Virus record (IMG/VR): IMGVR_UViG_3300031867_000001
Span: 32,001 to 96,000 of that record
Strand: one strand, 5' to 3'
Source: a virus
Taxonomy: Duplodnaviria; Caudoviricetes
DNA: 64,000 nucleotides
The notes below the pieces were generated by a model. The model did no database searches. It was given only the letters and a program-made list of their open reading frames with translations, and was not told the DNA's origin. This document shows, piece after piece, positions 662-45,372 of this stretch. A program made the translations under genes and the position numbers. Position 1 is the first letter of the stretch. The number at the start of each line of letters is the position of its first letter.

Positions 662-663
662 AG

Positions 664-826
664 ATCCAATCAGAATACTGATGAAATTGACGGATTGGAA
701 ATATCCGTATAAAGGAGGTGATAATCCATGGGTGAAATTATCACCGGAGAGGAAATCTTTCTCGGTTAATTTTTGATTAAAACTCATCCATATATAAACC
801 AACGTATCACAGTGTTCTGATTGGAT
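664..826 (+). other. End-paired micropeptide cassette 1
   Basis: ATCCAATCAGAATACTG (664-680) pairs with CAGTGTTCTGATTGGAT (810-826); internal ACGGATTGGAAATATCCGT hairpin, then AAAGGAGG RBS and a 13-aa ORF. Confidence 0.65.
728..769 (+). CDS. Micropeptide MGEIITGEEIFLG
   Basis: Strong RBS AAAGGAGGTG; similar to the three other cassette peptides. Confidence 0.55.
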   Translation: MGEIITGEEIFLG

Positions 827-857
827 TAATCATTAGTCATATAAGGAGGAAAAAGAT

Positions 858-8341: not shown

Positions 8342-8475
8342 GGGGACGATAGCTCAGTTGGTAGAGCACGTAAATGTCACTGTTACAAAAATCCTCACCG
8401 GATAGGTGATGCAGAAGTTAACAGTTACTTCGCATATGGAGCGCGTTGTCGTTAGTTCAAATCTAACTCGTCCCC
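8342..8475 (+). tRNA. tRNA-His-like (anticodon ATG, G-1:C73) interrupted by a ~60-nt conserved element in the anticodon stem
   Basis: 8-bp acceptor GGGGACGA/TCGTCCCC, D-arm GCTC/GAGC, T-arm GTTAG-TTCAAAT-CTAAC; removing ~8371-8430 gives CGCGC-ATATGGA-GCGCG. Confidence 0.7.
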
Positions 8476-31738: not shown

Positions 31739-31816
31739 GAATTAAGGAGTTATACCTCTCCGATCAATGAAAAGGTGATGTCTGCCCCGGACGATAAATG
31801 GGGAGAAAGGTACACT

Positions 31817-32848
31817 ATGAACACAAGAATGATTATTGAGAATAACCTGAAGAAAGTTTTGACGCCTCTCCAGCAGATCGCTTTCGACAACATTGATCTG
31901 CCAAATTCAAAACTGGCTAAGAAGCTTAACCGAACACCACAAAATACGAACTCCATCTCTAAAGCTTTAAAGGCGAAGCTTGAGAAACTCGAGTATACGG
32001 AAGAGTTCATCGATGATGCATGTATGCATCCGGATAAGTATCTGATCTCTTCAGAGGAATTAAGTGAAGAGATTGTGAAAAAGCTTGTCAGTGAGTACGG
32101 CAGAATCACAGTAACCACTGAAGAAATCAACAACGATCGCACCAGACTTTGCGAGGATCCTGTATGGAATAGCTTCCTCGAAACCTCGTCCACGAAAATG
32201 TGGAAAACCTACCCATTCAATTTAATCGCATTGATATTCGGTTTCACAAAGGAAGAGATGACAAACAGCGGATACATTAACGTTGACAGCACAGTTCAGA
32301 AGGAACTCGCTATCATGTGGGTTAATGGAGTCATCAAAACATGTCAAATTGCTGAAAAGCGATTCGATATCGTAGAAATGCGTTATCAGCAGCACTTGTC
32401 GTTGGTTGATATTGGTAATAAATACCATATTACCACGAATAGAGTCAGACAACTTCTGGCTAAATTCCTCCGGCAGATGAGACATCCCACAAGATCCAGA
32501 AAGCTTCGCGTTATAACCGAGGCATTGTTTAATACCAATGGTGAGGTTAACTTTTCAGATATAATCACGAAGTATGAACGTAAAATGACGGAGAAGGAAA
32601 TTGCACGCGATCTTGCTGCAAAGAACGGCAATGTGTCGCTTGATGACATCACGATCGAAGAACTGAATTTCTCGGTTCGGACATTTAATTGTTTGAAGCG
32701 TGCTGGTATCAATAATGTGGAAGAACTTGTTGATGCCATAACGAAGAAAACTGAAACAGGGTTTTTGTGCGATATTAGGAATCTCGGCAAGAAGTCCTAT
32801 GGCGATATTTGTGACAAACTCACATCGATGGGGTTCTTAAAGGAATAA
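31817..32848 (+). CDS. Sigma-70 region 4 + RNA polymerase alpha-CTD fusion protein
   Basis: SLVDIG..YHITTNRVRQLLAKFLRQMRHPTRSRKLR (sigmaA region 4-like) and IEELNFSVRTFNCLKRAGINNVEEL...IRNLGKKS (alpha-CTD). Confidence 0.85.
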   Translation: MNTRMIIENNLKKVLTPLQQIAFDNIDLPNSKLAKKLNRTPQNTNSISKALKAKLEKLEYTEEFIDDACMHPDKYLISSEELSEEIVKKLVSEYGRITVTTEEINNDRTRLCEDPVWNSFLETSSTKMWKTYPFNLIALIFGFTKEEMTNSGYINVDSTVQKELAIMWVNGVIKTCQIAEKRFDIVEMRYQQHLSLVDIGNKYHITTNRVRQLLAKFLRQMRHPTRSRKLRVITEALFNTNGEVNFSDIITKYERKMTEKEIARDLAAKNGNVSLDDITIEELNFSVRTFNCLKRAGINNVEELVDAITKKTETGFLCDIRNLGKKSYGDICDKLTSMGFLKE

Positions 32849-32905: not shown

Positions 32906-34603
32906 ATGAGAAAGAACACTTACAAATTTGATCGTGAGACTTATATGTCTTCGAAGAGTTACAAGATCTCTGATAAAATCTTGAAGATCCCTCAGTGGAT
33001 TCTCATGACAGTTGCAATTGCACTGTCAATTGTGTATGGACTGATGATCACTAAATGCTCGGAAGTAATCAAGTCCGTCACTGAGGGTAATACCGATCTC
33101 ATCAATGTGTTGGCAGTCTATGTCGTTGTTAACATCGGTATGGCGGTTCTTTCATTCTTCTCCAATAACGCGTTAAAAGCATGGAGATTGAATGAAATCA
33201 ACAAGCAATTCCTTCGTAAGTATGATAAGATTTTCGATTCAAGAACGCAGGACATCACCGCTGTTGGTCCTGCGAAGATTGAGTCGACAGTCAATCAGAT
33301 TGCCGGATACAAGAGTGACATCAAGTCGCAGGTATCCGGTATCATTGAGGTGATTGTTCCATTCGGAGTGACCATGTGGAAGGTCATGGAACAGAACCTC
33401 ATTGCAGGATTCGCAATGCTGTTATTGATGGGAGGAACACTGTTTCTGTCGATTAATGGCGACAACATTTTTCACTTCAATGAGAAATCATCTCAGATGA
33501 AGGGAGAGATGAAGTCAATATCCGTTAACAACTTCGTCGTTGTTCGTATGCTCAAGTACATGGGTGCAAAAGAGTATGCGAACTACAGACAGAAGCGTTG
33601 TCAGGATGATGCTACGCCAGCTTTCTTGAACGTGTCAAGAAGATTCTATGACACATGCATGGACGTCCTGTACAACTCGCCCATACTCATTGCATTGGGT
33701 GTTGCGGCATTCTCTAATAATCTCGGACTCGCTATCTTTGTCGCTATGAACGAGTGGACAATCCGGTCGATGATCGGATATGTTTCATCGATCACGGAAA
33801 CAAAATCCGAGATTGATGGACTTGAGAAAGTTCTTGAGACCCTCAAGGGAGATGACACTGACATTTCCGAGAAACCTGCAATGCCTAATAAAATGATCCT
33901 CAAGGATGTGGAATTTTACTATGCTTCCGACAAGGATCATCGGATGCCCTTTAGAATTCCATATTTTGAGATTGAGCAGGGCAAACGGTATAGATTCTCA
34001 GGGGCCTCTGGTCTCGGCAAGAGCTCGTACTTTAAGTTCTTCGCCGGTGAAATGGAAGCGAACAAGTCGTTTGATGTTCGCACATTTTACATTCACCAGA
34101 GAAGTGAACTGGTATATGGTACAGTGAGAGAGAATCTGACGCTTGGAAACAAGTGGGTTCCTGATCCTGTACTGGAAGAACTGATCGAAGAGGTCAGACT
34201 TGGTCAGTGGTTTAAGTCTTTGCCGAATGGTTTGGATACTGTTATCGGTAAGGATATTGAACCGTCTGGTGGTGAACAGTCTCGTATCTCGCTGTTAAGA
34301 CTGTTTGTACATCTGAGAAATTATGGACCTACGGGTTCTCACCCAATCACTGATGAAGTGATTATCCTGGATGAAGTAACATCTGCTCTGGACAAGCGTG
34401 ATGTATTCATCAAGGATGGTGAATTATCGACCGAAGAAGCAGTCATCAAGGTTATTGACAAGGAGACTAAGGGTTCGACGATGTTCGTGATTTCGCACGA
34501 AGATGTGTCTTCGAATGCGTTTGGATTCAAGGACATCGTTGATGAGCAGATGGTAATTGACATTGATGAAGACGGAGGCAGAACGTTTCGTAAGATGATG
34601 TAA
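32906..34603 (+). CDS. ABC transporter, fused transmembrane and nucleotide-binding domains (exporter type)
   Basis: N-terminal TM helices; GASGLGKS Walker A, SGGEQ signature, IILDE Walker B, ISH. Confidence 0.88.
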   Translation: MRKNTYKFDRETYMSSKSYKISDKILKIPQWILMTVAIALSIVYGLMITKCSEVIKSVTEGNTDLINVLAVYVVVNIGMAVLSFFSNNALKAWRLNEINKQFLRKYDKIFDSRTQDITAVGPAKIESTVNQIAGYKSDIKSQVSGIIEVIVPFGVTMWKVMEQNLIAGFAMLLLMGGTLFLSINGDNIFHFNEKSSQMKGEMKSISVNNFVVVRMLKYMGAKEYANYRQKRCQDDATPAFLNVSRRFYDTCMDVLYNSPILIALGVAAFSNNLGLAIFVAMNEWTIRSMIGYVSSITETKSEIDGLEKVLETLKGDDTDISEKPAMPNKMILKDVEFYYASDKDHRMPFRIPYFEIEQGKRYRFSGASGLGKSSYFKFFAGEMEANKSFDVRTFYIHQRSELVYGTVRENLTLGNKWVPDPVLEELIEEVRLGQWFKSLPNGLDTVIGKDIEPSGGEQSRISLLRLFVHLRNYGPTGSHPITDEVIILDEVTSALDKRDVFIKDGELSTEEAVIKVIDKETKGSTMFVISHEDVSSNAFGFKDIVDEQMVIDIDEDGGRTFRKMM

Positions 34604-34637
34604 ATGAATGTGGGGGCATTCAGCCCCCACATCTTAT

Positions 34638-34887
34638 TTTGTGTAATTCCATAATCACTGAAAAATCAATGAGGTGAAAATCCCCATAGAAAGGAGTGGT
34701 ATTTTGCCATGAATGAACTTGGTGAAATCTACGTTCCGGATACTTCCGGACAAGAAATTATTTGCGGTTAAACCGTAAATGAATGACATCGCCCGTGTAA
34801 TAACAGTACACGAAGCATACCAAACCTTAGGCAAGTTTGTGACCGAACATAAGCAAACGCATTTCAGTGATTATGAAATTACATAAA
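34638..34887 (+). other. End-paired micropeptide cassette 2
   Basis: TTTGTGTAATTCCATAATCACTGAAA pairs with TTTCAGTGATTATGAAATTACATAAA; hairpin, AAAGGAG RBS and ORF inside. Confidence 0.7.
34709..34771 (+). CDS. Micropeptide MNELGEIYVPDTSGQEIICG
   Basis: RBS AAAGGAG; homologous to the peptides at 35546 and 44855. Confidence 0.65.
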   Translation: MNELGEIYVPDTSGQEIICG

Positions 34888-34971
34888 TAGTCAACAAATT
34901 TATGTATATTATAGACTGGGGCTTGTGTATATGAGCCCCATAAACCTATTTCCAATAAGGAGGAATTTATT

Positions 34972-35430
34972 ATGACACGTAAAGAAATGATTAAGATGAT
35001 CATGAGACATGGTTTCCCATACATCATCGCTGCAGCTTTTACAGAGATGCATATTCGTTATGGATATGCGCTTCCATATGTAGGAAGACCCGAATCAGAA
35101 GAACTTGACGAGGATATGTCCGTACTCGGTCACGTACCGATCGAGCATATTTCGTTCAATGGCAATCATCCAGATTTCGGGGATTGCACTTTCATTTTAC
35201 AGAAGTACAAAAGACGTGAGTATCGCAACAATAAAAGAACATACTACCGCATGTTCATACTCAAGGATGGAGAAGTGTGGGACGAACGTGGTCCTTTTGC
35301 AGAGCGCGAACTCTATTCGGACATTATTCTCGGAACTGATTTAATGGACAGATTCATGCAGTCGGATAATAGTTATAATACCGGACTGAAGATCTCTAAT
35401 CCTGTTGCTGAGATTAAGCATGTTTGTTAA
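34972..35430 (+). CDS. Hypothetical protein
   Basis: RBS AAGGAGG. Confidence 0.7.
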   Translation: MTRKEMIKMIMRHGFPYIIAAAFTEMHIRYGYALPYVGRPESEELDEDMSVLGHVPIEHISFNGNHPDFGDCTFILQKYKRREYRNNKRTYYRMFILKDGEVWDERGPFAERELYSDIILGTDLMDRFMQSDNSYNTGLKISNPVAEIKHVC

Positions 35431-35478
35431 ACACATTATAACGTCCCCCGCATAAGCGGGGGACTCGTATATGTGGTT

Positions 35479-35689
35479 TTATGTATATTGACAAGTGCCA
35501 TGAAATTGACGGAGTGGAATTCTCCGTGTGAAAGGAGATGATAACATGGAGGAAGTTTATATCCCCGATACAGAAGGTTGTATCATCATTTGCGAATAAT
35601 CGTGAATGATTAAAAAAATAAACGGAAGCGGTTGCGGCTTCCGTGTCCGAAACACACAAACGTATCATGGCACTTGTCAATGTATATAA
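35479..35689 (+). other. End-paired micropeptide cassette 3
   Basis: ATTGACAAGTGCCATGA pairs with TCATGGCACTTGTCAAT; ACGGAGTGGAATTCTCCGT hairpin before RBS. Confidence 0.75.
35546..35599 (+). CDS. Micropeptide MEEVYIPDTEGCIIICE
   Basis: RBS AAAGGAG; synonymous differences versus the 44805-44855 copy. Confidence 0.7.
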   Translation: MEEVYIPDTEGCIIICE

Positions 35690-35748
35690 ACGGAAGTGTG
35701 TTATATATCATTGTGTTCATAACACACAATCCGTTTATTTTTTCTCTA

Positions 35749-37080
35749 TTAACCAAGTTCCGCCAGAGCTTGGTTGATATCAAATGGTTTGATTGTACCC
35801 GCGACATCTAATGCTGGTGAGATGTACTTCTCAAGCTCTTCTTTCGCAACTGTTAAGAATGCTTTTGCAGTTTCAGGATTCTTTGCAAAGTCTTCGTATA
35901 TTTTCTTCCACGTAAACTTCTCGGAGATCTCTTCACCCTTTTCGTTAAGCACCTTGAAACCTGCCTTGTTACCCTTGAGACGACCCTTACTGTTCAACAA
36001 CAGTACGAGTGTTCGAATATTGTCAACACCATTCTTAGTCTTGTCAATAACGATTCTGAAACCAAGTCCGGTTTTATTATTACCAGACTGATTGGTGGAA
36101 AGTTTCGTGGGCTCATACAAAATTGTATTCCCATTGAAACCGTCTTGAGCTTCATAATAACGCGAGTCTTCTTTGATTTCACCTGTAAATGACATAACAG
36201 AAGAAGCATTATATTCAACTGATTTACCACCGCTGATCTTAATATCGTGGGATCCATATTGGAATTGCTTCTTCGGTCCAGAGAATGCATTCATTGCAAC
36301 ATTTGCATTCTCATGTGCGATTGTGATAAAGATGATATTAGCTTCTTTCAACATTGGAAGAATGTCGCATAATACACCTTTAAGTGTTTTAGCATTCTGC
36401 ATACCATCTGTATTGGAACGCATTTCCTTTTGTTTATCCCATTCTTTTGCATCACGAATCTCATATTCCTTTGAGATTACATCACTCAAGGAATCAAGGA
36501 ATAGAATCGTTGGTGGCATCAGCTTGATCGGTTCATTGTTACAATCAACAACACCTGTATCCTTTAACAGAATATCTTTATAACGCATCTTGTTCTCGTA
36601 GATTTCTGTTACGATTGTTTGTAATGTATCATAACCAATCGCACCACTCCTCAAAGCATAACGTGGAGAATCACCATTGAACCAATTGTCAGGTAATCCA
36701 GTCATATTCTTAAGACGCTGAATGACAAGTCTGTTTTCAGCATCAAGATGAATGACATTACCACCATTTGCAGATGCGATATTTGCAGCCATAATCATTG
36801 CAATTGTTGTTTTGAAAGACTGTGTTGGTCCAGTCACAACATTGAATGTACCGGCTTGAATACCAAGACACAACCGTTTGCCAATCAACTTACCATCTTT
36901 GTCTTTGATATTGACTTCATATCCAAGTGAATAGTCGATTACAGAAATACCTGTAGGATATGAATAATCAACAAGTGTATTTTTTGAAAATACAGAAGAC
37001 TGACCATTGTTCGACAGAATCGTCATTAAGTCAGCATCTTTCATTTCTTCATTCAAAACTGATTGTTTCTTATTAGCCAT
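35749..37080 (-). CDS. RecA/UvsX-like recombinase
   Basis: GPTQSFKT Walker A, IHLDAE, LFLDSL, SGGKSVEY. Confidence 0.8.
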   Translation of the reverse strand: MANKKQSVLNEEMKDADLMTILSNNGQSSVFSKNTLVDYSYPTGISVIDYSLGYEVNIKDKDGKLIGKRLCLGIQAGTFNVVTGPTQSFKTTIAMIMAANIASANGGNVIHLDAENRLVIQRLKNMTGLPDNWFNGDSPRYALRSGAIGYDTLQTIVTEIYENKMRYKDILLKDTGVVDCNNEPIKLMPPTILFLDSLSDVISKEYEIRDAKEWDKQKEMRSNTDGMQNAKTLKGVLCDILPMLKEANIIFITIAHENANVAMNAFSGPKKQFQYGSHDIKISGGKSVEYNASSVMSFTGEIKEDSRYYEAQDGFNGNTILYEPTKLSTNQSGNNKTGLGFRIVIDKTKNGVDNIRTLVLLLNSKGRLKGNKAGFKVLNEKGEEISEKFTWKKIYEDFAKNPETAKAFLTVAKEELEKYISPALDVAGTIKPFDINQALAELG

Positions 37081-37140
37081 TGTAATATACCTCTCCTTTA
37101 TGAAAATATTATTGGGTGTCCCATTTGAATCATATACATA

Positions 37141-37956
37141 TCAACTTTCATAAAGTTCTTTCAGCATTACTTCACGATTACGTTTAATTGCGTTACCAAG
37201 TCCGCAACTCATCTTACCCTCAGGACACTTGCCATTGATACAAGATGGTCCAGCATGTTTGAACAATGTTGGTGATACTTCCATACACTGTTTCCACATC
37301 TCCCATGCAACAGCACGAATCTCCCACTGTGCACGGTTGCACATACGATGTTTGAAGAAGTTATATAATGAACGAATATTCATTGTAACAAAGATCTTGG
37401 TTTCACATGCATTGGGCAATACATAACGTGCATCTTCATTTGCACTCTTCTTTGCTTTATTACGTAACTCCTTCTTGGTATTTTCAGAAATCATTGGTGT
37501 ACCATCTGGATTTGTTGTATATGTATCAATGTAATGATGATAATGCTTCATGGTTAAAGCATTCACCAACTTATCATATTCTTTTTGAACATTCGCCATG
37601 AATTCATCATACTCACTCTTCAATTCAGCATCTCCATAAATTGCGGGTGGAATGATGTAATTGAATTGTTCCATATTGACATATCTCTGGGACTGCTGTG
37701 AATATGATGCGATTCTGTGACGGACTAACTGGTGACTACAGCTACGTGAGATTCCTTCAATGGCGAATGTGAATGAAACATGTTCAACTGGGGACTCATG
37801 TCCAATCTCCATTAACATTTCCAAAAAAGAATGAATCTTTTCATCTGTTAAAGATTCTTGTAAGTCATCAATAGATGATGCGGAATAACATAACTTTGCC
37901 GCAGTTGCAATCACCTTTTCCGGTTCAGGTGTATGTGTAATTAGTTTAACCTTCAT
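37141..37956 (-). CDS. thyX: FAD-dependent thymidylate synthase
   Basis: [38 protein letters not shown]. Confidence 0.95.
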
Positions 37957-38473
37957 TTGTGTGATCCTCCTTGTCGGTATCATCAGTTCTCATAATATCT
38001 TCCAATTCAGTTGTTAATGGTGTATGACCATCACTGATGGTGTATGGAGATGTTGAATCTGTATTAACCGTTATGAATGCATGTGGATATCCATTAATCT
38101 CATCCAGTATGTGTTTTGTTTCTTTCACAACACCAGTTGCTTGTTTACACTTTTCAGTCTCTGAATACAATGCAGTTGTGAATGATATGGGATTACACTT
38201 ATCAGCAGATATTACACAATCATCAAATGTGATTGTCAATGGACCAGTGATTGTAAGTTTGCCGTCTAAATAGTCTTGTACACGAACCGAGTGTTTAAAT
38301 CCATCATATCTTCGGAAAATAGCATTACCAGTTACTCGATCTATTTCAATAAACAATTCATATGACGGTTCATCGATATCTTCATATTGAAGCTTATACG
38401 GATAACCCGTCTTGAATAAAGACTCATCAAACACGTATGTTTGTTTTACAAAAAATTTATCCACGAGAAACAC
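37946..38473 (-). CDS. Hypothetical protein
   Basis: GTG start with AAAGGA RBS-like sequence, 175 aa. Confidence 0.6.
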
Positions 38474-38558
38474 TCCTTTTATATGAAAAATGTATCAGAT
38501 TGTTTTGATGGTTTGATGATATATGCGGTCGGGGGATAATCCCCCGACCACGCTATTA

Positions 38559-38837
38559 TCATTTCTCTTTCTTTTGTACAATGTTCTTCAGCGTGACATA
38601 TTCGTCATACCGAAGATCATAGAAACTCATGGTTGTGTCATTGGTAAATTGCAAATCAATTGCATAATAGATTCTCGAGGTATTCACATCAAGAATCACA
38701 ATTGGTCTTTTTGCATTTTCAACATTTGTAGCAATGACAGATAGTACGATGGCGAACCCAATCAGAAGTGCAATACAAATGCCGTATATCTCTGATGGTG
38801 TTAATATACACCATTTTTGTTTTAATTTCATTACCAA
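38559..38837 (-). CDS. Small membrane protein
   Basis: Single TM segment IYGICIALLIGFAIVLSVIA. Confidence 0.6.
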   Translation of the reverse strand: MVMKLKQKWCILTPSEIYGICIALLIGFAIVLSVIATNVENAKRPIVILDVNTSRIYYAIDLQFTNDTTMSFYDLRYDEYVTLKNIVQKKEK

Positions 38838-38846
38838 TATCCCCTC

Positions 38847-39278
38847 TTAATTATCTAAATGATACTGTACTATGTTTACTCCATACAGTTCAACAATATC
38901 TTGTATGATCAATGCAGCTGGTACTGCGAACATTCGATCTGTTGCAACATCATAAAACAGGAAGATCTCATTGTCGACGATTTTGGCTAATACATAAGTA
39001 CCGTCCATCTTATCAACGCCCCAATACCGTTTTCTATTTTGATATTGTATTGGGATTAAACTTTTGATATGAAACTTATCACCGACGTCAGAAATCTCCA
39101 ATTTAACATTGATCATACCGGATTTGAACATATCATCTGCATAATACGTTCTGCCCCACATTTCAAACGATTTGTTTACCATTCCTTTTCCTCTTCTCAA
39201 TAACTTACTTGTCAGACGAAACATCATTTGACAACTCTTCGATTTGTTGACGAATGTGTTCACGCATCTTTTCGTCAT
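38847..39278 (-). CDS. Hypothetical protein (true start may be 39182)
   Basis: ORF within operon. Confidence 0.55.
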   Translation of the reverse strand: MTKRCVNTFVNKSKSCQMMFRLTSKLLRRGKGMVNKSFEMWGRTYYADDMFKSGMINVKLEISDVGDKFHIKSLIPIQYQNRKRYWGVDKMDGTYVLAKIVDNEIFLFYDVATDRMFAVPAALIIQDIVELYGVNIVQYHLDN

Positions 39279-39376
39279 AGACTACCTTGCCGGTTTCAAC
39301 GGCACGTTCAAACTCTTTGATGTAACCGTCTTTGTCATTTGGATGGGGATCATACATAATTAACACCTTCTTTTCA

Positions 39377-39658
39377 TTATACTTTGAATTTGATATTGTG
39401 TGTATTCACAAATTGAACATCCGTTTTGTGTTCAAAACGATAACATTCCGAACCAACCAAATCCGGTGTCAATTTGATTTTACAATACAATCCGTCTTCA
39501 TCGGATGGAACTGCAAATACCAAAGACTTATTGTATTTTTGATATAATACAGCATTGTCGATATTCTCATTGGTGGATGTGATTCGATACGTCCATCCAA
39601 TGTTGAAATAACTTCTGTCGAATATCAATCCGGAAAACTTTGTGTCACGATGCATCAT
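39377..39658 (-). CDS. Hypothetical protein
   Basis: RBS GAGGT. Confidence 0.55.
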   Translation of the reverse strand: MMHRDTKFSGLIFDRSYFNIGWTYRITSTNENIDNAVLYQKYNKSLVFAVPSDEDGLYCKIKLTPDLVGSECYRFEHKTDVQFVNTHNIKFKV

Positions 39659-39832
39659 TATTACATACCTCCTATAATATCAGCAATTACGATGATTACT
39701 CCAAGAACAATCAGTATCTTCGGAATCAAACCAACAATGGCATTTGCTCGTTCTTTTAATAATCGATCTTCTTCTCTGTCATACTTCTCATTGAATGATT
39801 CGTCATTTTTGTCCATTTATAATTCCTCCTCA

Positions 39833-40909
39833 TTATTTTTCATCATGTTTGATTTTTGCTTCATATGAATGTATTTCTTCTGATAAATCAACTTTGTATT
39901 TTTGATTGATGAAATCGATCAAACCAACAATTGGTTCTGTCACAGTTGCTTGTTGATCTGTTGTTTCATCAACCGTTGGCAATGTTACATCGGTTATATT
40001 CTCCAATGGAGTAACTTTGAACTTTACATTCTCATTTTGTTTTGCAATATCCATAATTGCATGATACGTCATTAAATCCGGTATGTCTGTTGGATTAATA
40101 ACGAATCGATGTGGTGTTGTAATGTCATTGGATAAAGCATCACGTAATTCTTCTGGATCGTGAATCTCAATTGTCTTAAACTCTTTCGCAACTGGATTCT
40201 TTACTTTGATCAAGTTGAAATTATCATCACACATCACGATGTACTTTGTTTCATCTTCACCATATCGGAATCGTAACATTGATCCAGCGTAATACACACC
40301 ATTCCCAAAATCGGTGTATTCATGATAATGTCCAAATACACACAATTTGGAAATGCTGCTTAATGTTTCAACCGAATGCATGATTTCTGTTCCATGTGAT
40401 GTTACAACATTCTTTGTTTGAGACGACATTGGTCCATGTCCACATATCAAATCATATGTCTCATTGAATGCTTCTGTATAATCAACATCACCATATTCTT
40501 GTGGTAAATATAGTAGACGTTTACCAGATGGAAGTGTTATCTGAATCCAGTTCTTGAAATACAGAATACGTTCATCATATACATCGGATTTGTTTGTGAA
40601 ATTTGCAAAGATGTTGAATTGATTTCGATCATGTGAATATGTTCCTTCAATGATATGTACAGGAACATGTGTTCCATTCACACCACATCCATTGTAGTAT
40701 AACTTTAATATGAATGAAGATGCAAATGTCATTTCATACACATTCAATGCATGATCAAATAAATCACCACATACAACAATCAATTCACATGTTTCATTAT
40801 GAATGATTGCTTGCTTCTTAAATGTATCAAGTGATACAATCAAAGAGTTATAGAAATCTTCATTTGGTAGTTTCACTCCAAGATGTACATCCGCTAAGAA
40901 TAATATCAT
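39833..40909 (-). CDS. SbcD/Mre11-like metallophosphoesterase nuclease
   Basis: ADVHLG, GDLFDH, EGTYSHD, FGHYH, YYAGS. Confidence 0.85.
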   Translation of the reverse strand: MILFLADVHLGVKLPNEDFYNSLIVSLDTFKKQAIIHNETCELIVVCGDLFDHALNVYEMTFASSFILKLYYNGCGVNGTHVPVHIIEGTYSHDRNQFNIFANFTNKSDVYDERILYFKNWIQITLPSGKRLLYLPQEYGDVDYTEAFNETYDLICGHGPMSSQTKNVVTSHGTEIMHSVETLSSISKLCVFGHYHEYTDFGNGVYYAGSMLRFRYGEDETKYIVMCDDNFNLIKVKNPVAKEFKTIEIHDPEELRDALSNDITTPHRFVINPTDIPDLMTYHAIMDIAKQNENVKFKVTPLENITDVTLPTVDETTDQQATVTEPIVGLIDFINQKYKVDLSEEIHSYEAKIKHDEK

Positions 40910-40986
40910 ATAAAATACCTCCCTTCATATAACATTGTCACTATAATAATTGTATTATAACGGGGCTATACGCCCCGTTATATACG

Positions 40987-41709
40987 TTATTCGTCATCGT
41001 GATACGGATCGTCAATATACATTGATGGTTCTTGATATTGTTGATGGAATATGTCATCGATTGATTGTTCACCAAAATGTTGTTGATCAATCTTGATGAT
41101 TTTTGCATAACGTGGCTGTGCCAACATACATGTTTTCAAATTAACCGGTGTTTTACGACCACCCAACCATCCAATATCAATTTGATTTGTATATGGAATA
41201 ATGTACGTGTGATATCCATGTAAGTGTGCATGAATATTCAAGTCATATTTATTCTCAACAGGAACGTGTGTAAATATAATATGATTCCAAACAAATGAAT
41301 CCACGATATATCGGAATCCACATTCTTTGTAGAATGAATCTGGGAATAAATCATTATTACCACGAACCATGATCATTTTCTTACCAAAGTTCTGAATCAC
41401 TGCTTTCAATTCATCTTTATTTTGGAATTCTCCATCGACTAAATCCCCCATAAAGATGAATAAGTCTTCTGGTCCAATTCCATTCTTAAAGCTGTTGATA
41501 ACTGTAGTGAAATCAGAACGCTTATGACATTCAGGTTTATTCTTTTCATTTCTTAACCATAAATGCCAGTCGCATCCAAGCAGGACTTTGTGTCCTGCTT
41601 GAAGCGTATTATTAATCAACCGACTGATGTCGGTCGAGTGCTCTTTATCTGGATCTTTTAACTTCTCCATCAAGTTGTCTTCTTTACGACGTTGCTGATT
41701 GATGTTCAT
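40987..41709 (-). CDS. Calcineurin-like metallophosphoesterase
   Basis: CDWH, MGDLVD, RGNND, THVP, HAHLH. Confidence 0.8.
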   Translation of the reverse strand: MNINQQRRKEDNLMEKLKDPDKEHSTDISRLINNTLQAGHKVLLGCDWHLWLRNEKNKPECHKRSDFTTVINSFKNGIGPEDLFIFMGDLVDGEFQNKDELKAVIQNFGKKMIMVRGNNDLFPDSFYKECGFRYIVDSFVWNHIIFTHVPVENKYDLNIHAHLHGYHTYIIPYTNQIDIGWLGGRKTPVNLKTCMLAQPRYAKIIKIDQQHFGEQSIDDIFHQQYQEPSMYIDDPYHDDE

Positions 41710-42127
41710 GTAGATTCATCCTCTCTTTGATTTGTCGGTTTAATCCATTGTCAATGAATTCCCCATTTTCAACCAGAGAGAAATACTTAAACAGCTTAGA
41801 GTTGATGCGGACTTTGCAAACAACAAATCCATCATCATTCTTCATTAACTGAATATCGATCATGCTGATGATATCATGATAAGCCGCGATCACAGCCTTG
41901 TACAACACATTGAACAATGCATTGTGGAATTCGTCGATGCGGTCTTCATCGATTGGAAGTACATCGGGTGTGAAACCGCACTGATAGAAGTCACTGACAT
42001 GACACTGGATGATATGCTTTTGGTCGTCCTTCAATAACACATTCAGTGCCAAGCCATTATACTTCTTCTCAACATCATACGTTGCTCGTGCAACATTGTC
42101 AATATAAACTATTGCTAATTTATTCAT
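41684..42127 (-). CDS. Hypothetical protein
   Basis: 147 aa ORF within operon. Confidence 0.65.
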   Translation of the reverse strand: MNKLAIVYIDNVARATYDVEKKYNGLALNVLLKDDQKHIIQCHVSDFYQCGFTPDVLPIDEDRIDEFHNALFNVLYKAVIAAYHDIISMIDIQLMKNDDGFVVCKVRINSKLFKYFSLVENGEFIDNGLNRQIKERMNLHEHQSATS

Positions 42128-42169
42128 AATACTTCTCCATTCTTTTTATGATGTATAAACAGTGCCCCA

Positions 42170-44053
42170 TTACAGGGCACCGTTCATAACATCATCGATT
42201 GTGTATATCGGTTTTCCTAAGTTCTGTGCTTTTGCAACTTTGGAAGACTGATATGTGATCTGAGGAATTACCAGTGCTTTCACACCTTTATTCCATGCTT
42301 CTGTTACGTCATAACCCTTCTGCTGTAATAAATTGATTAAGTCTTTATCCCGTGTTCCAGAAATACAGATTGTCCCTTTATCATTCTGCATTGCAACTGG
42401 GATTTCGAATTTGACATAATTGATGATTGTGGATATATCGTCCCAATATCGTGTAATACCAATCCGGATTGCTTGTTCTGTCAGTGGTCCAATACCAACT
42501 GTATCCCACAGAATCTTATTCAAGAAATCATCCGGTGTATCCCGCATACACATTTCGGTTATATCCTTAATCATTTCTGGATTGTTCTTACCATAAACCG
42601 AATCAAGAATAATCTCCCATTTCTTATTGGATACATTTTCACATGGGAATGATCCAAGCCATCTGGATACGGGAACATTGAATGATGATTGTTTCAATGA
42701 ACGAATCATGTTCTGTAATGATCTGAATCCAAATCCATCCACTTCGGCAGCTTCCATCAAATCCATTACATATAGATCAGAGATTTGTCTGATATATCCA
42801 GACTCATACAGTCGCTTTATGAATCCTTCCGAAACACCAAACACTTTCATGTTCTTACAATACCGGATGATGTTACCACATTTCACACCATCACAATTTG
42901 GATTGACACACTTAACTTGCTTCAACGAAGACATGTTAAGCTTCTCTCCACAGATTGGGCATTTGTCTGGGATTGGAATTGGTAATGTTCCATCGCCATT
43001 GGAACCAATGAAGTATGGCACGATGTTGTACATAATACGAACCGTATCTCCAAACTTCAAGTTCATATTGGCAACTCTTTCGAATGTCGACAATCCGACA
43101 TTTTGAACGATGACATTTCCGAATACAACTGGTTCAACAATTGCAACTGGAGTGATATGACCGGAATTACCGAATTGCCAACTGATATCTTTCAGCTTCG
43201 TTTCTTGTACGAGATTCAGTATCTTGATAGCAACTTCATTGGATGGATCTGTTACGACATCTTCATCTTCCTCATCAATGTGTATGGTGGAAGATACAAC
43301 AACTCCATCACATTCAAATTCATATTTCCCAACATTAACGTGAGCTTGATTGGATAATAATCTATCAACGAATGCTTGAATACATTCATAGTCATTCTTC
43401 TGATAAACAACAGATACATCCATCAACATATCCGGAATATGTTGAAACTTCCAAGTGTACACACGTAATGGAACTAATGTAATCAAATTACCAACCTCGG
43501 CATTACGTGATGTAATTGTTGCAGCAACAACATCTCTCGGTCGTTTGTACTTGTGTGAGAATTGTGATTTGAATATGTTGATATCCAAGATTGCTTCAAA
43601 CTTCACGGCAGTTACATCATCATACCACTTTACTATCCAATCATGGATCGTATTGATATGAGACTTGAATACATCTGTTACATCAACAGATTCTCCATTG
43701 TCATAATCACCCCTTGTGAAGAATCTACCGGATGCAACATCATATGCAACAGACGTTCCATCGAACTTTGGTTGAACGCATACCAAATCACTGACTTGAT
43801 GTTTGTTAACCCATTCTTCATATACTGGCTGATTCTCGCGCATTGGTGTTCGTACGCCATAGACTTTTGGAAGTGTTCCGACAACGTCATTCACAGCATC
43901 GGATTGTTTTTGACGTGTAAATGGTCTGGCGGATTCGCCATGTTCTTTGATATACTCTTCCAACAACTTGTCATATTCAGAGTCTTCGATCAAGGGGGTG
44001 CCATGTGAATATGCCTCGATATATTTGTCAAGCTCTTCTTTTGTGATACTCAT
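42170..44053 (-). CDS. ligA: NAD-dependent DNA ligase
   Basis: DSEYD, PKFDG, DGVV, G.SG.ITP, CPICG zinc finger, BRCT-like tail. Confidence 0.92.
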   Translation of the reverse strand: MSITKEELDKYIEAYSHGTPLIEDSEYDKLLEEYIKEHGESARPFTRQKQSDAVNDVVGTLPKVYGVRTPMRENQPVYEEWVNKHQVSDLVCVQPKFDGTSVAYDVASGRFFTRGDYDNGESVDVTDVFKSHINTIHDWIVKWYDDVTAVKFEAILDINIFKSQFSHKYKRPRDVVAATITSRNAEVGNLITLVPLRVYTWKFQHIPDMLMDVSVVYQKNDYECIQAFVDRLLSNQAHVNVGKYEFECDGVVVSSTIHIDEEDEDVVTDPSNEVAIKILNLVQETKLKDISWQFGNSGHITPVAIVEPVVFGNVIVQNVGLSTFERVANMNLKFGDTVRIMYNIVPYFIGSNGDGTLPIPIPDKCPICGEKLNMSSLKQVKCVNPNCDGVKCGNIIRYCKNMKVFGVSEGFIKRLYESGYIRQISDLYVMDLMEAAEVDGFGFRSLQNMIRSLKQSSFNVPVSRWLGSFPCENVSNKKWEIILDSVYGKNNPEMIKDITEMCMRDTPDDFLNKILWDTVGIGPLTEQAIRIGITRYWDDISTIINYVKFEIPVAMQNDKGTICISGTRDKDLINLLQQKGYDVTEAWNKGVKALVIPQITYQSSKVAKAQNLGKPIYTIDDVMNGAL

Positions 44054-44388
44054 GACTCATCACCTGTTTCCTCTTTCGCGACAAACGTATCGGTTTCACG
44101 GATCTGACGATAAAAGCATGCATAATGCTCTTCACGTTCTTTGGCATATTGATGAATCTTGAACGCTCCAGAGTTCATCGTGTTCTTGTTGTGATTGTGG
44201 TCCCAGAATACGCCCATTCTTGAAGATGTATACGAACGATGATCAACCCCTGTTTTCAGTGAGATGATCTTGAACAATGCATCTTTCAGAATTGTCGGAT
44301 CTGAGGCTTTGATGATTTTAATGTCCATATCCACGAGTTGGTTTCCTTTGAAGTGTGACAATGATACTGCATACTTCATAAGAATCAC
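44050..44388 (-). CDS. Hypothetical protein
   Basis: Overlaps ligase start. Confidence 0.6.
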   Translation of the reverse strand: MILMKYAVSLSHFKGNQLVDMDIKIIKASDPTILKDALFKIISLKTGVDHRSYTSSRMGVFWDHNHNKNTMNSGAFKIHQYAKEREEHYACFYRQIRETDTFVAKEETGDES

Positions 44389-44715
44389 ATCCTTTCTTGT
44401 AGTATAATGAATCGTAAATGATTACTCGTTGAATAATTCTTCTAACATCAAATTCGCATCTTCAACAACCGCCATTGACTCTGCGAATAAATAGAACTCT
44501 TCTAACGATTCACAACCCCATTCATCCATAAGTTGGGGAACACTTGTAATCATCATGTTTTCCATATTAACACCTCATTTCTGTTTAATGCCATGACGTT
44601 AACAAGTCAGCCAGAATCTCGGCTAAACTACTTCCACTGTCCTCGTTATCGTCATTGTCATTGTCGAATAATACAAACTCTTCCATTTCTTTTCCTCCTG
44701 ATGAACTTTATAAAT

Positions 44716-44917
44716 AACCATTTTGAACATTGTGATGAGTTGGTTTGTTGTGGACGTGTGGAAGTTGCTACCTTCCACATTTATTATTTTTTAATTATCC
44801 ACGATTATTCGCAGATGATGCTACCAGTTGTGTCTGGAATATAAACTTCTTGCATTATGTAACACCTCCTTTGTACGGAGAATTCCACTCCGTATATTTC
44901 ACAATGTTCAATTGGTT
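44716..44917 (-). other. End-paired micropeptide cassette 4
   Basis: TTGAACATTGTGA pairs with TCACAATGTTCAA; same ACGGAGTGGAATTCTCCGT hairpin; downstream of promoter motif at 44958-44972. Confidence 0.75.
44805..44855 (-). CDS. Micropeptide MQEVYIPDTTGSIICE
   Basis: RBS AAAGGAGGTG. Confidence 0.7.
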   Translation of the reverse strand: MQEVYIPDTTGSIICE

Positions 44918-44957
44918 TTTGGGTAGTATAAGCGGGGGAATATTCCCCCACTTATAC

Positions 44958-44972
44958 CATATTAATTATATA
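44958..44972 (-). promoter_or_regulatory. Candidate promoter TATATAATTAATATG
   Basis: Exact reverse-strand copy of the motif. Confidence 0.55.
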
Positions 44973-44973
44973 T

Positions 44974-45372
44974 TTATTTGCTGATAAAATTATTATCCTC
45001 GGTTAAACCATTTTTGATCAATTCATTGAGTGTGTCTCGCTGCTTTTGTGTCATTATGTATTCAGGTGGACACATATAACCACGTGTGTATACACATATG
45101 CATTTGGATCGAATGATTAACCATTCAACCCAACCATATACAGAGAACTGTTGTTCCGCTTCATCTTGGACATCCTTCATACACATGTCTGGATTTTGTT
45201 TCAATATCATTTCAACCAATTTCCGTTCATGTGATGGGATTGCATAATGAACAACACCATCTTCATCAATAACAGCTTCCATGTAATTGACAAACGTTTT
45301 CTTATGTCTGTCGATTGAAAATGGTAATGCAAATGTTTCTTCAGGTGTGTAAATAAGCTCAACCTTTTCCAT
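44974..45372 (-). CDS. Hypothetical protein
   Basis: RBS AAAGGAG before MEKVEL; YAIPSH motif. Confidence 0.65.
   Translation of the reverse strand: MEKVELIYTPEETFALPFSIDRHKKTFVNYMEAVIDEDGVVHYAIPSHERKLVEMILKQNPDMCMKDVQDEAEQQFSVYGWVEWLIIRSKCICVYTRGYMCPPEYIMTQKQRDTLNELIKNGLTEDNNFISK

Follow-up and report, generated by a model that had tools for sequence, protein, structure and literature searches.

The 64,000-nucleotide stretch of DNA considered here (the window) comes from a virus record that is complete at 250,503 bp (IMGVR_UViG_3300031867_000001, referred to as G000) and spans its bases 32001-96000; the record has direct terminal repeats and 37.6% G+C, and the sequencing runs that contain G000 DNA are cattle rumen metagenomes. 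The window carries four copies of a cassette of about 200 nt, in which complementary 5′ and 3′ ends (arms) enclose a hairpin, a strong Shine-Dalgarno (SD) sequence, and an open reading frame (ORF) of only 13-20 codons. The cassette family is real, expressed, and not described before, and consists of very small genes; to date, its members all come from a single clade of rumen jumbo phages. An earlier note on this DNA had listed the four loci, all of which are found where it placed them and with the peptides it gave; the family is, however, larger than four, with seven copies (c1-c7) in a scan of the complete genome and about 20 more distinct copies from rumen relatives, so that about 27 copies are considered in total. 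A search of the whole genome with nhmmer yielded no copy beyond the seven.

Cassette c1 (663-827, plus strand) is of the short type and carries a class B ORF; its arms lie at 663-680 and 810-827 (18 bp), and its inner parts are the hairpin (690-708), the SD sequence (711-718), the ORF (728-769, MGEIITGEEIFLG), and a CA box (approximately 793-803). Cassette c2 (34638-34887, plus strand) is the class C copy, with arms at 34638-34663 and 34862-34887 (26 nt, 92% complementary), a hairpin before the SD sequence at 34669-34687, the SD sequence at 34690-34696, and the ORF at 34709-34771 (MNELGEIYVPDTSGQEIICG). Cassette c3 (35478-35690, plus strand; class A) has arms at 35478-35503 and 35665-35690 (26 nt, 92% complementary), the hairpin at 35509-35527, the SD sequence at 35531-35537, the ORF at 35546-35599 (MEEVYIPDTEGCIIICE), and a second hairpin at 35622-35644. 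Cassette c4 (44716-44917, minus strand; class A) has arms at 44899-44917 and 44716-44735 (13 + 5 bp), the hairpin at 44875-44893, the SD sequence at 44865-44872, the ORF at 44855-44805 (MQEVYIPDTTGSIICE), and the second hairpin at 44756-44780. The remaining copies lie outside the window on the minus strand, at genome positions 96749-96947 (c5), 179870-180080 (c6), and 182634-182835 (c7). In the window's list of long-range inverted repeats, c2 and c3 come second and third by arm length, and the folding energies of the four window copies are far below those of shuffled sequences (z values of -5.5, -7.7, -10.6, and -6.5).

Alignments reveal a fixed order of elements. A promoter-like motif (in five of the seven copies) is followed by the 5′ arm, or by a short 5′ hairpin and then the arm, by TGAAAT(T)G, and by the hairpin ACGGAG-UGGAAUU-CUCCGU, which is near-invariant except for a compensated change of a G-C to a U-A pair. 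The window contains three exact occurrences of the hairpin sequence ACGGAKTGGAAWTMTCCGT, where 0.1 would be expected, each 4-6 nt upstream of AAAGGAG(G), in agreement with the claim that one hairpin sequence precedes this ribosome-binding site (RBS) in three of the loci, and the sequence is found at no other site in the genome outside the cassettes. Then come the SD stretch AAAGGAGGUGAU, of which 12 nt are predicted to be complementary to the 3′ end of 16S rRNA, and the ORF; the SD sequence AAAGGAGGTGAT is no more than 50 nt away from the 5′ arm. A stop hairpin holds the last codons and has the stop codon in its loop, and in class B the hairpin falls within the last codons. Downstream follow an A-rich tract, a GGAAG...CUUCC hairpin in the long forms, the CA box AUAAAC(C/A)(A/G)AC, UCA, and the 3′ arm; an A/C-rich tract before the 3′ arm, also noticed earlier, is seen in all copies. 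Sequence is conserved in the hairpin and in the CA box, whereas the arms are free to vary, and almost every nucleotide lies inside a conserved element.

Known classes of RNA do not account for this anatomy. Rfam searches at gathering score returned only tRNAs in the window, and nothing came near threshold on 34560-35760 at permissive E-values. A transfer-messenger RNA was rejected, as neither ARAGORN nor Rfam gives a match at the cassettes and the ORFs have an SD sequence and ATG or GTG; a hammerhead was likewise rejected by inspection, CUGAUGA being present only in c1-type arms and not conserved. Two further sequence features were observed. In all long cassettes the second hairpin (35622-35644 and 44756-44780 in the window) forms, together with the preceding A-tract, what would be an intrinsic terminator on the antisense strand, and no sigma-70-like antisense promoter was found at these cassettes. 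Furthermore, the 5′ arm of c2 contains AAUUCCA (34645-34651), which is perfectly complementary to UGGAAUU, the loop of the conserved hairpin in other cassettes, and the same is observed in two relatives (L010:2263-2473 and L014:479-689); a loop-arm contact in trans is possible, as is coincidence.

The closing stem was analysed with RNAalifold and a shuffle test of the arms. As the earlier note had stated, the ends are complementary and differ from copy to copy: the arms, 13-30 bp long across the family, pair in all four window loci, and 14 distinct inner arm sequences are found across the copies. Arms of the same cassette are 94.8% paired, compared with 52.6% (maximum 72%) when partner arms are shuffled among cassettes, and RNAalifold on 24 sequences recovers an 18-pair closing stem, with double compensatory changes in 21 of 26 pairs. 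Between c3 and its orthologue in the related phage G001, the 5′ arm has changed from TTGACAAG to TTAACAAG and the 3′ arm, in compensation, from CTTGTCAA to CTTGTTAA (G to A and C to T). A synonymous Ile change (ATT to ATC) in the ORF is likewise compensated on the 3′ side of the stop hairpin. Non-Watson-Crick pairs in unique arms comprise 28 G·U against 6 A·C (p ~2e-4), which suggests that it is the sense-strand RNA that pairs, rather than the DNA. On this comparative evidence, the end-pairing is evidently selected at the RNA level.

The micro-ORF has the marks of a gene. Three classes of peptide are distinguished: class A, M[GEQ]E[IV]YIP[DNS]TxG[SVAC]II(I)C[ED]; class B, MGEIIT[GS]EEIFL[GD]; and class C, MNELGEIYVPDTSGQEIICG. 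The peptides are 13-20 aa long with a net charge of -3 to -4 (three or four acidic residues and no basic residue) and lack a membrane-spanning stretch. Among 12 distinct class A sequences, variable sites are distributed 4/4/16 over the three codon positions, so that all 16 third positions vary, and synonymous and non-synonymous codon differences stand at 384:174, compared with 52:487 and 72:443 in the shifted frames; in class B the variable sites are distributed 1/2/9, and the differences stand at 135:22, compared with 2:104 and 11:97. All four Pro codons are in use, Ser is encoded by both AGC and TCT, and indels stay in frame (3 or 9 nt). A diverged orthologue of c2 in the relative L032, MNEIGEVFVPNTNGQDVFCG, lies beside an ABC gene that is only 68% identical and differs from c2 by five synonymous-only codons and eight replacements, all conservative. 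The coding selection proposed by the earlier note is thus borne out by third-position variation, the synonymous excess in frame, in-frame indels, and this orthologue, and the peptide is, judging from these codon patterns, under protein-level selection. Stops or frameshifts, which the note had named as a sign against coding, turn up only marginally, in two of about 27 copies, one with GAA changed to TAA at codon 3 and the second hairpin lost (the same sequence in two samples) and the other with a 1-nt deletion and the first hairpin lost; the additional loss of a hairpin in each suggests that these copies are in decay. The 20-aa peptides have no match in Pfam or the Protein Data Bank, and the best match in PHROGs (E = 0.12) is to one PHROG of unknown function. 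A β-hairpin fold is probable because hydrophobic residues alternate around a P-D-T-x-G or T-G turn. As a separate observation, the acidic frame of c7 starts with GTG, and two bases before it stands an ATG in the +1 frame, from which a hydrophobic 21-mer would be encoded, MWKKFIFLILMVVLLFANNRK (L002:3700-3790, minus strand; genome ~182700-182790). The +1 frame is open in other copies as well, but without a start codon and not hydrophobic.

Evidence for expression was obtained from assembled RNA contigs of four rumen metatranscriptome studies, which were placed on 20 kb of the window; runs were picked for holding part of 34000-36500. Cassette c2 appears in four of four studies as a single, near-identical contig of 216-247 nt (34644-34867, 34621-34867, 34645-34858, and 34641-34867), and a c4 contig (44730-44936) is present in run X11, in which the depth is 34 for c2 and 16 for c4, compared with 2-6 for other phage contigs. 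A c6-like contig spans both arms up to the next RBS. Cassette-sized RNA is present in the rumen, and cassette-sized contigs are what the metatranscriptomes hold of this region, in line with the mini-mRNAs that the earlier note had proposed. The RNA contigs leave p152, c3, and the ABC gene mostly uncovered, and this lack of cover is no evidence. An antisense transcript starting at the sharp contig end was considered and rejected by inspection, as there is no suitably placed antisense -10 element.

Upstream of most cassettes lies a 20-nt motif, (A/T)ATATTTATATAATTAATATG, which occurs at 21 genome sites on both strands (at 642, 9612, 14728, 31717, and 44977 in the window), mostly before small genes with structured leaders, and which is a putative promoter. 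Five of the 21 sites precede cassettes, that is, five of the seven copies, and the arm or 5′ hairpin begins 1-3 nt after the predicted transcription start. In the window the motif stands just before two copies, as previously claimed: before c1 at 642-661 on the plus strand (ATATTTATATAATTTAAATG), with the 5′ arm beginning 1-3 nt after the predicted +1, and before c4 at 44958-44977 on the minus strand, followed by a 5′ hairpin (approximately 44926-44957) and then the 5′ arm. A second motif, TTTATGTATATT, was rejected as a general promoter, having two exact genome sites only. In most cassettes, the RBS of an unrelated small gene follows 15-40 nt past the 3′ arm. Directly after c3, a terminator-like hairpin with a T-run (35691-35745, plus strand) has no same-strand gene behind it, and a convergent UvsX-like gene ends here; the same arrangement is found in G001 and in the relatives L012 and L023. 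Directly upstream of c2 and c3 lies an ABC exporter gene (32906-34603, plus strand), encoding a 565-aa protein with about five hydrophobic segments and an ABC ATPase domain.

The relatives extend this picture. G001, a 258-kb phage from IMG/VR, has an ABC exporter that is ~90% and a UvsX that is ~95% identical to those of G000 at the c2/c3 locus, and it carries four cassettes, of which one is orthologous to c1, two stand in tandem at the c3 locus, and the fourth is without the hairpin; at its c5 locus no cassette is present, and the whole intergenic region differs, with no clean excision. One scan of metagenome contigs added 15 loci with about 16 further distinct cassettes, IMG/VR added one more, and the diverged c2-type copy in L032 was reached via a homologue of the ABC gene. 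Tandem cassette pairs exist, and from phage to phage one and the same locus, with the same arms, can contain an ORF of class A, of class B, or of class A but damaged (L012, for example, has c3 arms with a class B ORF), so that the cassette modules recombine. Outside this group, searches returned little. The hairpin pattern found only G001 in IMG/VR, plus two chance matches inside coding sequence, and in bacterial genomes it found only two matches, in alphaproteobacterial records, which were taken as chance without inspection; the c2-type ORF pattern had no match in IMG/VR. When searched against phage databases, the cassette region and the sequences around it showed no DNA-level similarity to any catalogued phage, and a tail-like protein gave distant matches only. 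The host may belong to Bacillota, as is suggested by the long SD sequences.

The window also contains tRNAs, a gene resembling the β subunit of multisubunit RNA polymerase, ThyX, an NAD-dependent ligase, and the UvsX-like recombinase. Within the tRNA gene cluster, an Rfam tRNA match at 8343-8475 (plus strand) extends over 133 nt, far beyond tRNA size, and is not called by ARAGORN. A gene at 31775-32848 (plus strand) encodes a 357-aa protein in which sigma-70 region 4 is fused with the C-terminal domain of the RNA polymerase α subunit, which is unusual. In two relatives (L031 and the P0022 contig), an HNH/NUMOD4 gene that is absent from G000 lies between UvsX and ThyX, and P0010, a 938-aa protein homologous to the ABC exporter, with 91% identity across 66% of the query, contains a LAGLIDADG_3 domain, suggesting an intein or homing endonuclease in the ABC gene.

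The most economical reading of these data, to which we give a probability of about one half, is that each cassette is a self-contained, end-protected mini-mRNA, making a functional acidic, probably β-hairpin micropeptide that acts in trans. The family itself, the pairing at the RNA level, the selection on the peptide, and the cassette-sized RNA in the rumen are what the data show; RNA stabilisation and processing, the level of translation, the β-hairpin, and action in trans are what we infer. Transcription would start from the phage promoter or, at the c2/c3 locus, proceed by read-through, and the sense RNA would close on itself through a stem of 13-30 bp between its 5′ and 3′ ends. The stem would bury both ends and, with the inner hairpins, make the RNA compact, difficult to degrade, and shielded from the sequence around it; the stem is also possibly an RNase III processing stalk, freeing the cassette from downstream mRNA. 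The conserved hairpin in the loop is a likely protein operator. The SD sequence, in which up to 12 nt are predicted to pair with the 3′ end of 16S rRNA, would drive translation of the ORF, whose last codons and stop codon lie in a hairpin, and the resulting acidic strand-turn-strand peptide (e.g., EIYI-PDTEG-SIIIC) would act in trans on a host or phage target; several copies at the heads of transcription units would provide a high dosage. Autonomy of the cassette is favoured by c3-type copies that end at a terminator with no gene behind, by tandem copies, and by ORF swaps at the same arms. A bolder version, which we regard as unlikely, is that these closed-loop micro-genes are a phage device new to description, in which the covarying stem makes an RNase-resistant capsule of the ~200-nt transcript and keeps terminating ribosomes near the extra-strong SD sequence, so that very large amounts of the 13-20-residue β-hairpin peptide would disable a host function at the start of infection, with the hairpin as the on/off operator of an RNA-binding protein from phage or host. 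Neither an RNase III gene nor a CsrA gene was found in the phage genome.

Several points weigh against the end-protected mini-mRNA. The position of five of the seven copies in operon 5′ leaders is also compatible with a role in cis, and the copy with a premature stop retains intact arms and the hairpin, which hints at some RNA-level value. Translation and the peptide are predicted from sequence comparison, and no target, partner, or modifying enzyme was identified. The RNA evidence consists of assembled contigs, which give neither strand nor exact ends nor reliable levels; c3 is poorly covered in run X11; and in c4, as in c2 in three studies, the contig breaks off after precisely 6 nt of the 3′ arm (c2, 34867, TTTCAG|TG; c4, 44730, TCACAA|TG), which could reflect either a processing site, with most of the 3′ arm missing from the abundant RNA, or random priming failing inside the terminal duplex.

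The alternative that survives best, itself unlikely but with a real chance, is a cis-acting 5′ leader, in which the terminal duplex and a ribosome on the very strong SD sequence and mini-ORF protect or regulate the downstream, probably early, operon in the manner of STAB-SD, ermC-type, and hbs-type stabilisers, the peptide mattering as a nascent chain or not at all. The layout described above fits it: five of the seven copies stand between the 21-copy motif and the first gene of a unit, starting 1-3 nt after the predicted +1 with their arm or 5′ hairpin and ending 15-40 nt before the next RBS, the c6-like RNA contig runs across both arms to that RBS, and the SD complementarity is unusually long. 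Nevertheless, c3-type and tandem copies have no downstream gene, the genes that do follow are unrelated to one another, the c2 and c4 RNA contigs stop before the next gene, no alternative terminator/antiterminator structure is present, and the peptide is conserved in three length classes and a diverged orthologue. A leader-peptide attenuator in particular was rejected, as the c3-type copies end at a terminator without a gene and, in the others, no terminator separates the ORF from the gene that follows.

More doubtful is a role of the RNA as the main effector, a riboregulator or protein sponge that would use its hairpin (with GGA in the loop), SD sequence, and CA box to bind or titrate an RNA or an RNA-binding protein of host or phage, with the peptide as a second or minor function, as in a dual-function small RNA (sRNA). 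Sequence conservation of the hairpin and CA box next to variable arms, the packing of nearly all nucleotides into conserved elements, accumulation of the RNA, and the arms and hairpin kept in the stop-codon copy are all consistent with such a role. By contrast, the codon-position pattern indicates selection on the peptide itself, hairpin-less copies still retain the ORF, the hairpin occurs at no other genome site, no phage CsrA gene was found, and Rfam gave no match.

Export of the product as a signalling or bacteriocin-like peptide through the phage ABC exporter upstream of c2 and c3 is improbable. The earlier note had pointed to this neighbour as a possible partner, and the part of the link that holds is that the protein, with its five or so hydrophobic segments and ABC ATPase domain, is of the genuine exporter type, comprising a transmembrane and a nucleotide-binding domain. 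The exporter and a cassette are adjacent in G000, G001, L023, one further contig, and L032, and c2, which adjoins the exporter, is the copy best represented in RNA. The link is weakened by 7 of 12 exporter-carrying relatives, which have no cassette beside the exporter, and by five of the seven cassettes, which lie elsewhere in the genome; moreover, the strongly acidic peptides lack leader and signal sequences, and the phage yielded no RRNPP/TPR receptor. A search for features of RRNPP or arbitrium-type systems likewise found no signal sequence and no RNPP_C or TPR_12 domain in the phage genome, and a receptor might still be encoded by the host.

A DNA-level element, i.e., a mobile cassette resembling a miniature inverted-repeat transposable element (MITE) or an invertible segment, has very little probability. 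Inverted repeats of 13-30 bp around 150-200 bp are of the size expected of a MITE or inverton, copy number differs between close relatives (7 vs. 4), and loci gain, lose, and swap modules; however, the 28:6 excess of G·U over A·C is unexpected for DNA repeats, the arms differ between copies (14 distinct inner sequences), the flanks have no target-site duplications, all of about 25 copies have one orientation relative to the promoter, no strand-switch joints were reported, and the empty c5 locus of G001 differs across the intergenic region instead of being cleanly excised. A type I toxin-antitoxin-like locus, least probable of all and dismissed already in the earlier note because the peptides are acidic, would be in keeping with the hok-like 5′/3′ pairing, the antisense terminator formed by the second hairpin and its A-tract, and the hydrophobic 21-mer of c7, but the conserved frame encodes acidic peptides (three or four acidic residues) that do not span the membrane, the +1 frame is not conserved and has no start codon elsewhere, no antisense promoter was found, and the SD sequence is free, not sequestered, in predicted folds.

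Few known genes are as short as 13-20 codons, and gene callers do not see them; here comparative data alone show that the cassette ORFs form a family that is under protein-level selection, multi-copy, and expressed in nature. The ~200-nt unit joins a covarying closing stem with codon-overlapping hairpins and offers a clean model for stable, insulated mini-mRNAs of Gram-positive-type phages. If the peptide does target a host function, it would be among the smallest phage effectors known, and the cassette could double as a compact expression module.

By analogy, the nearest documented mechanism is that of the Bacillus subtilis hbs mRNA, in which a strong SD sequence and a 14-bp pairing between the 5′- and 3′-untranslated regions confer resistance to RNases Y and J1 (PMC5737220). 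The two have in common a 5′/3′ duplex, a strong SD sequence near the 5′ end, and, in hbs, a small, highly expressed mRNA; they differ in that hbs is a single chromosomal gene for a 92-aa protein with documented RNase protection, whereas the cassettes are multi-copy, phage-borne, and only 13-20 codons long, with a stem of up to 30 bp. The hok-type mRNAs resemble the cassettes in their closing 5′/3′ interaction, small ORF, and compact hairpins and differ in their hydrophobic membrane toxin and sequestered SD sequence, neither of which the cassettes have, and in their control by antisense RNA, for which no promoter was found at the cassettes. Dual-function sRNAs, such as RNAIII/hld of Staphylococcus aureus, SR1/SR1P of B. 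subtilis, and Spot 42/SpfP of Escherichia coli, are structured RNAs of ~100-500 nt that encode a peptide of 15-39 aa; the cassettes share the combination of a structured RNA with a very small peptide and differ in being multi-copy, phage-borne, and end-paired and in that they are not known to base-pair with a target. The mccA gene for the microcin C heptapeptide is similar in its extremely short ORF and its discrete small mRNA, which accumulates owing to a hairpin and ribosome binding; it belongs, however, to a biosynthetic operon that also encodes modification and export, and Asn is required as the last residue of its peptide, whereas the cassettes have neither such an operon nor a terminal-residue rule. 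Finally, RNase III processing stalks, known from rRNA precursors and the early mRNAs of T7 and SP82, bracket a functional RNA in a longer transcript with long near-perfect duplexes, as the arms bracket the cassette RNA, although the ends of the cassette contigs do not fit a staggered double cut and the phage has no RNase III gene. What is new is the cassette family as a variant of two known themes, end-paired stable mRNAs and very small genes.

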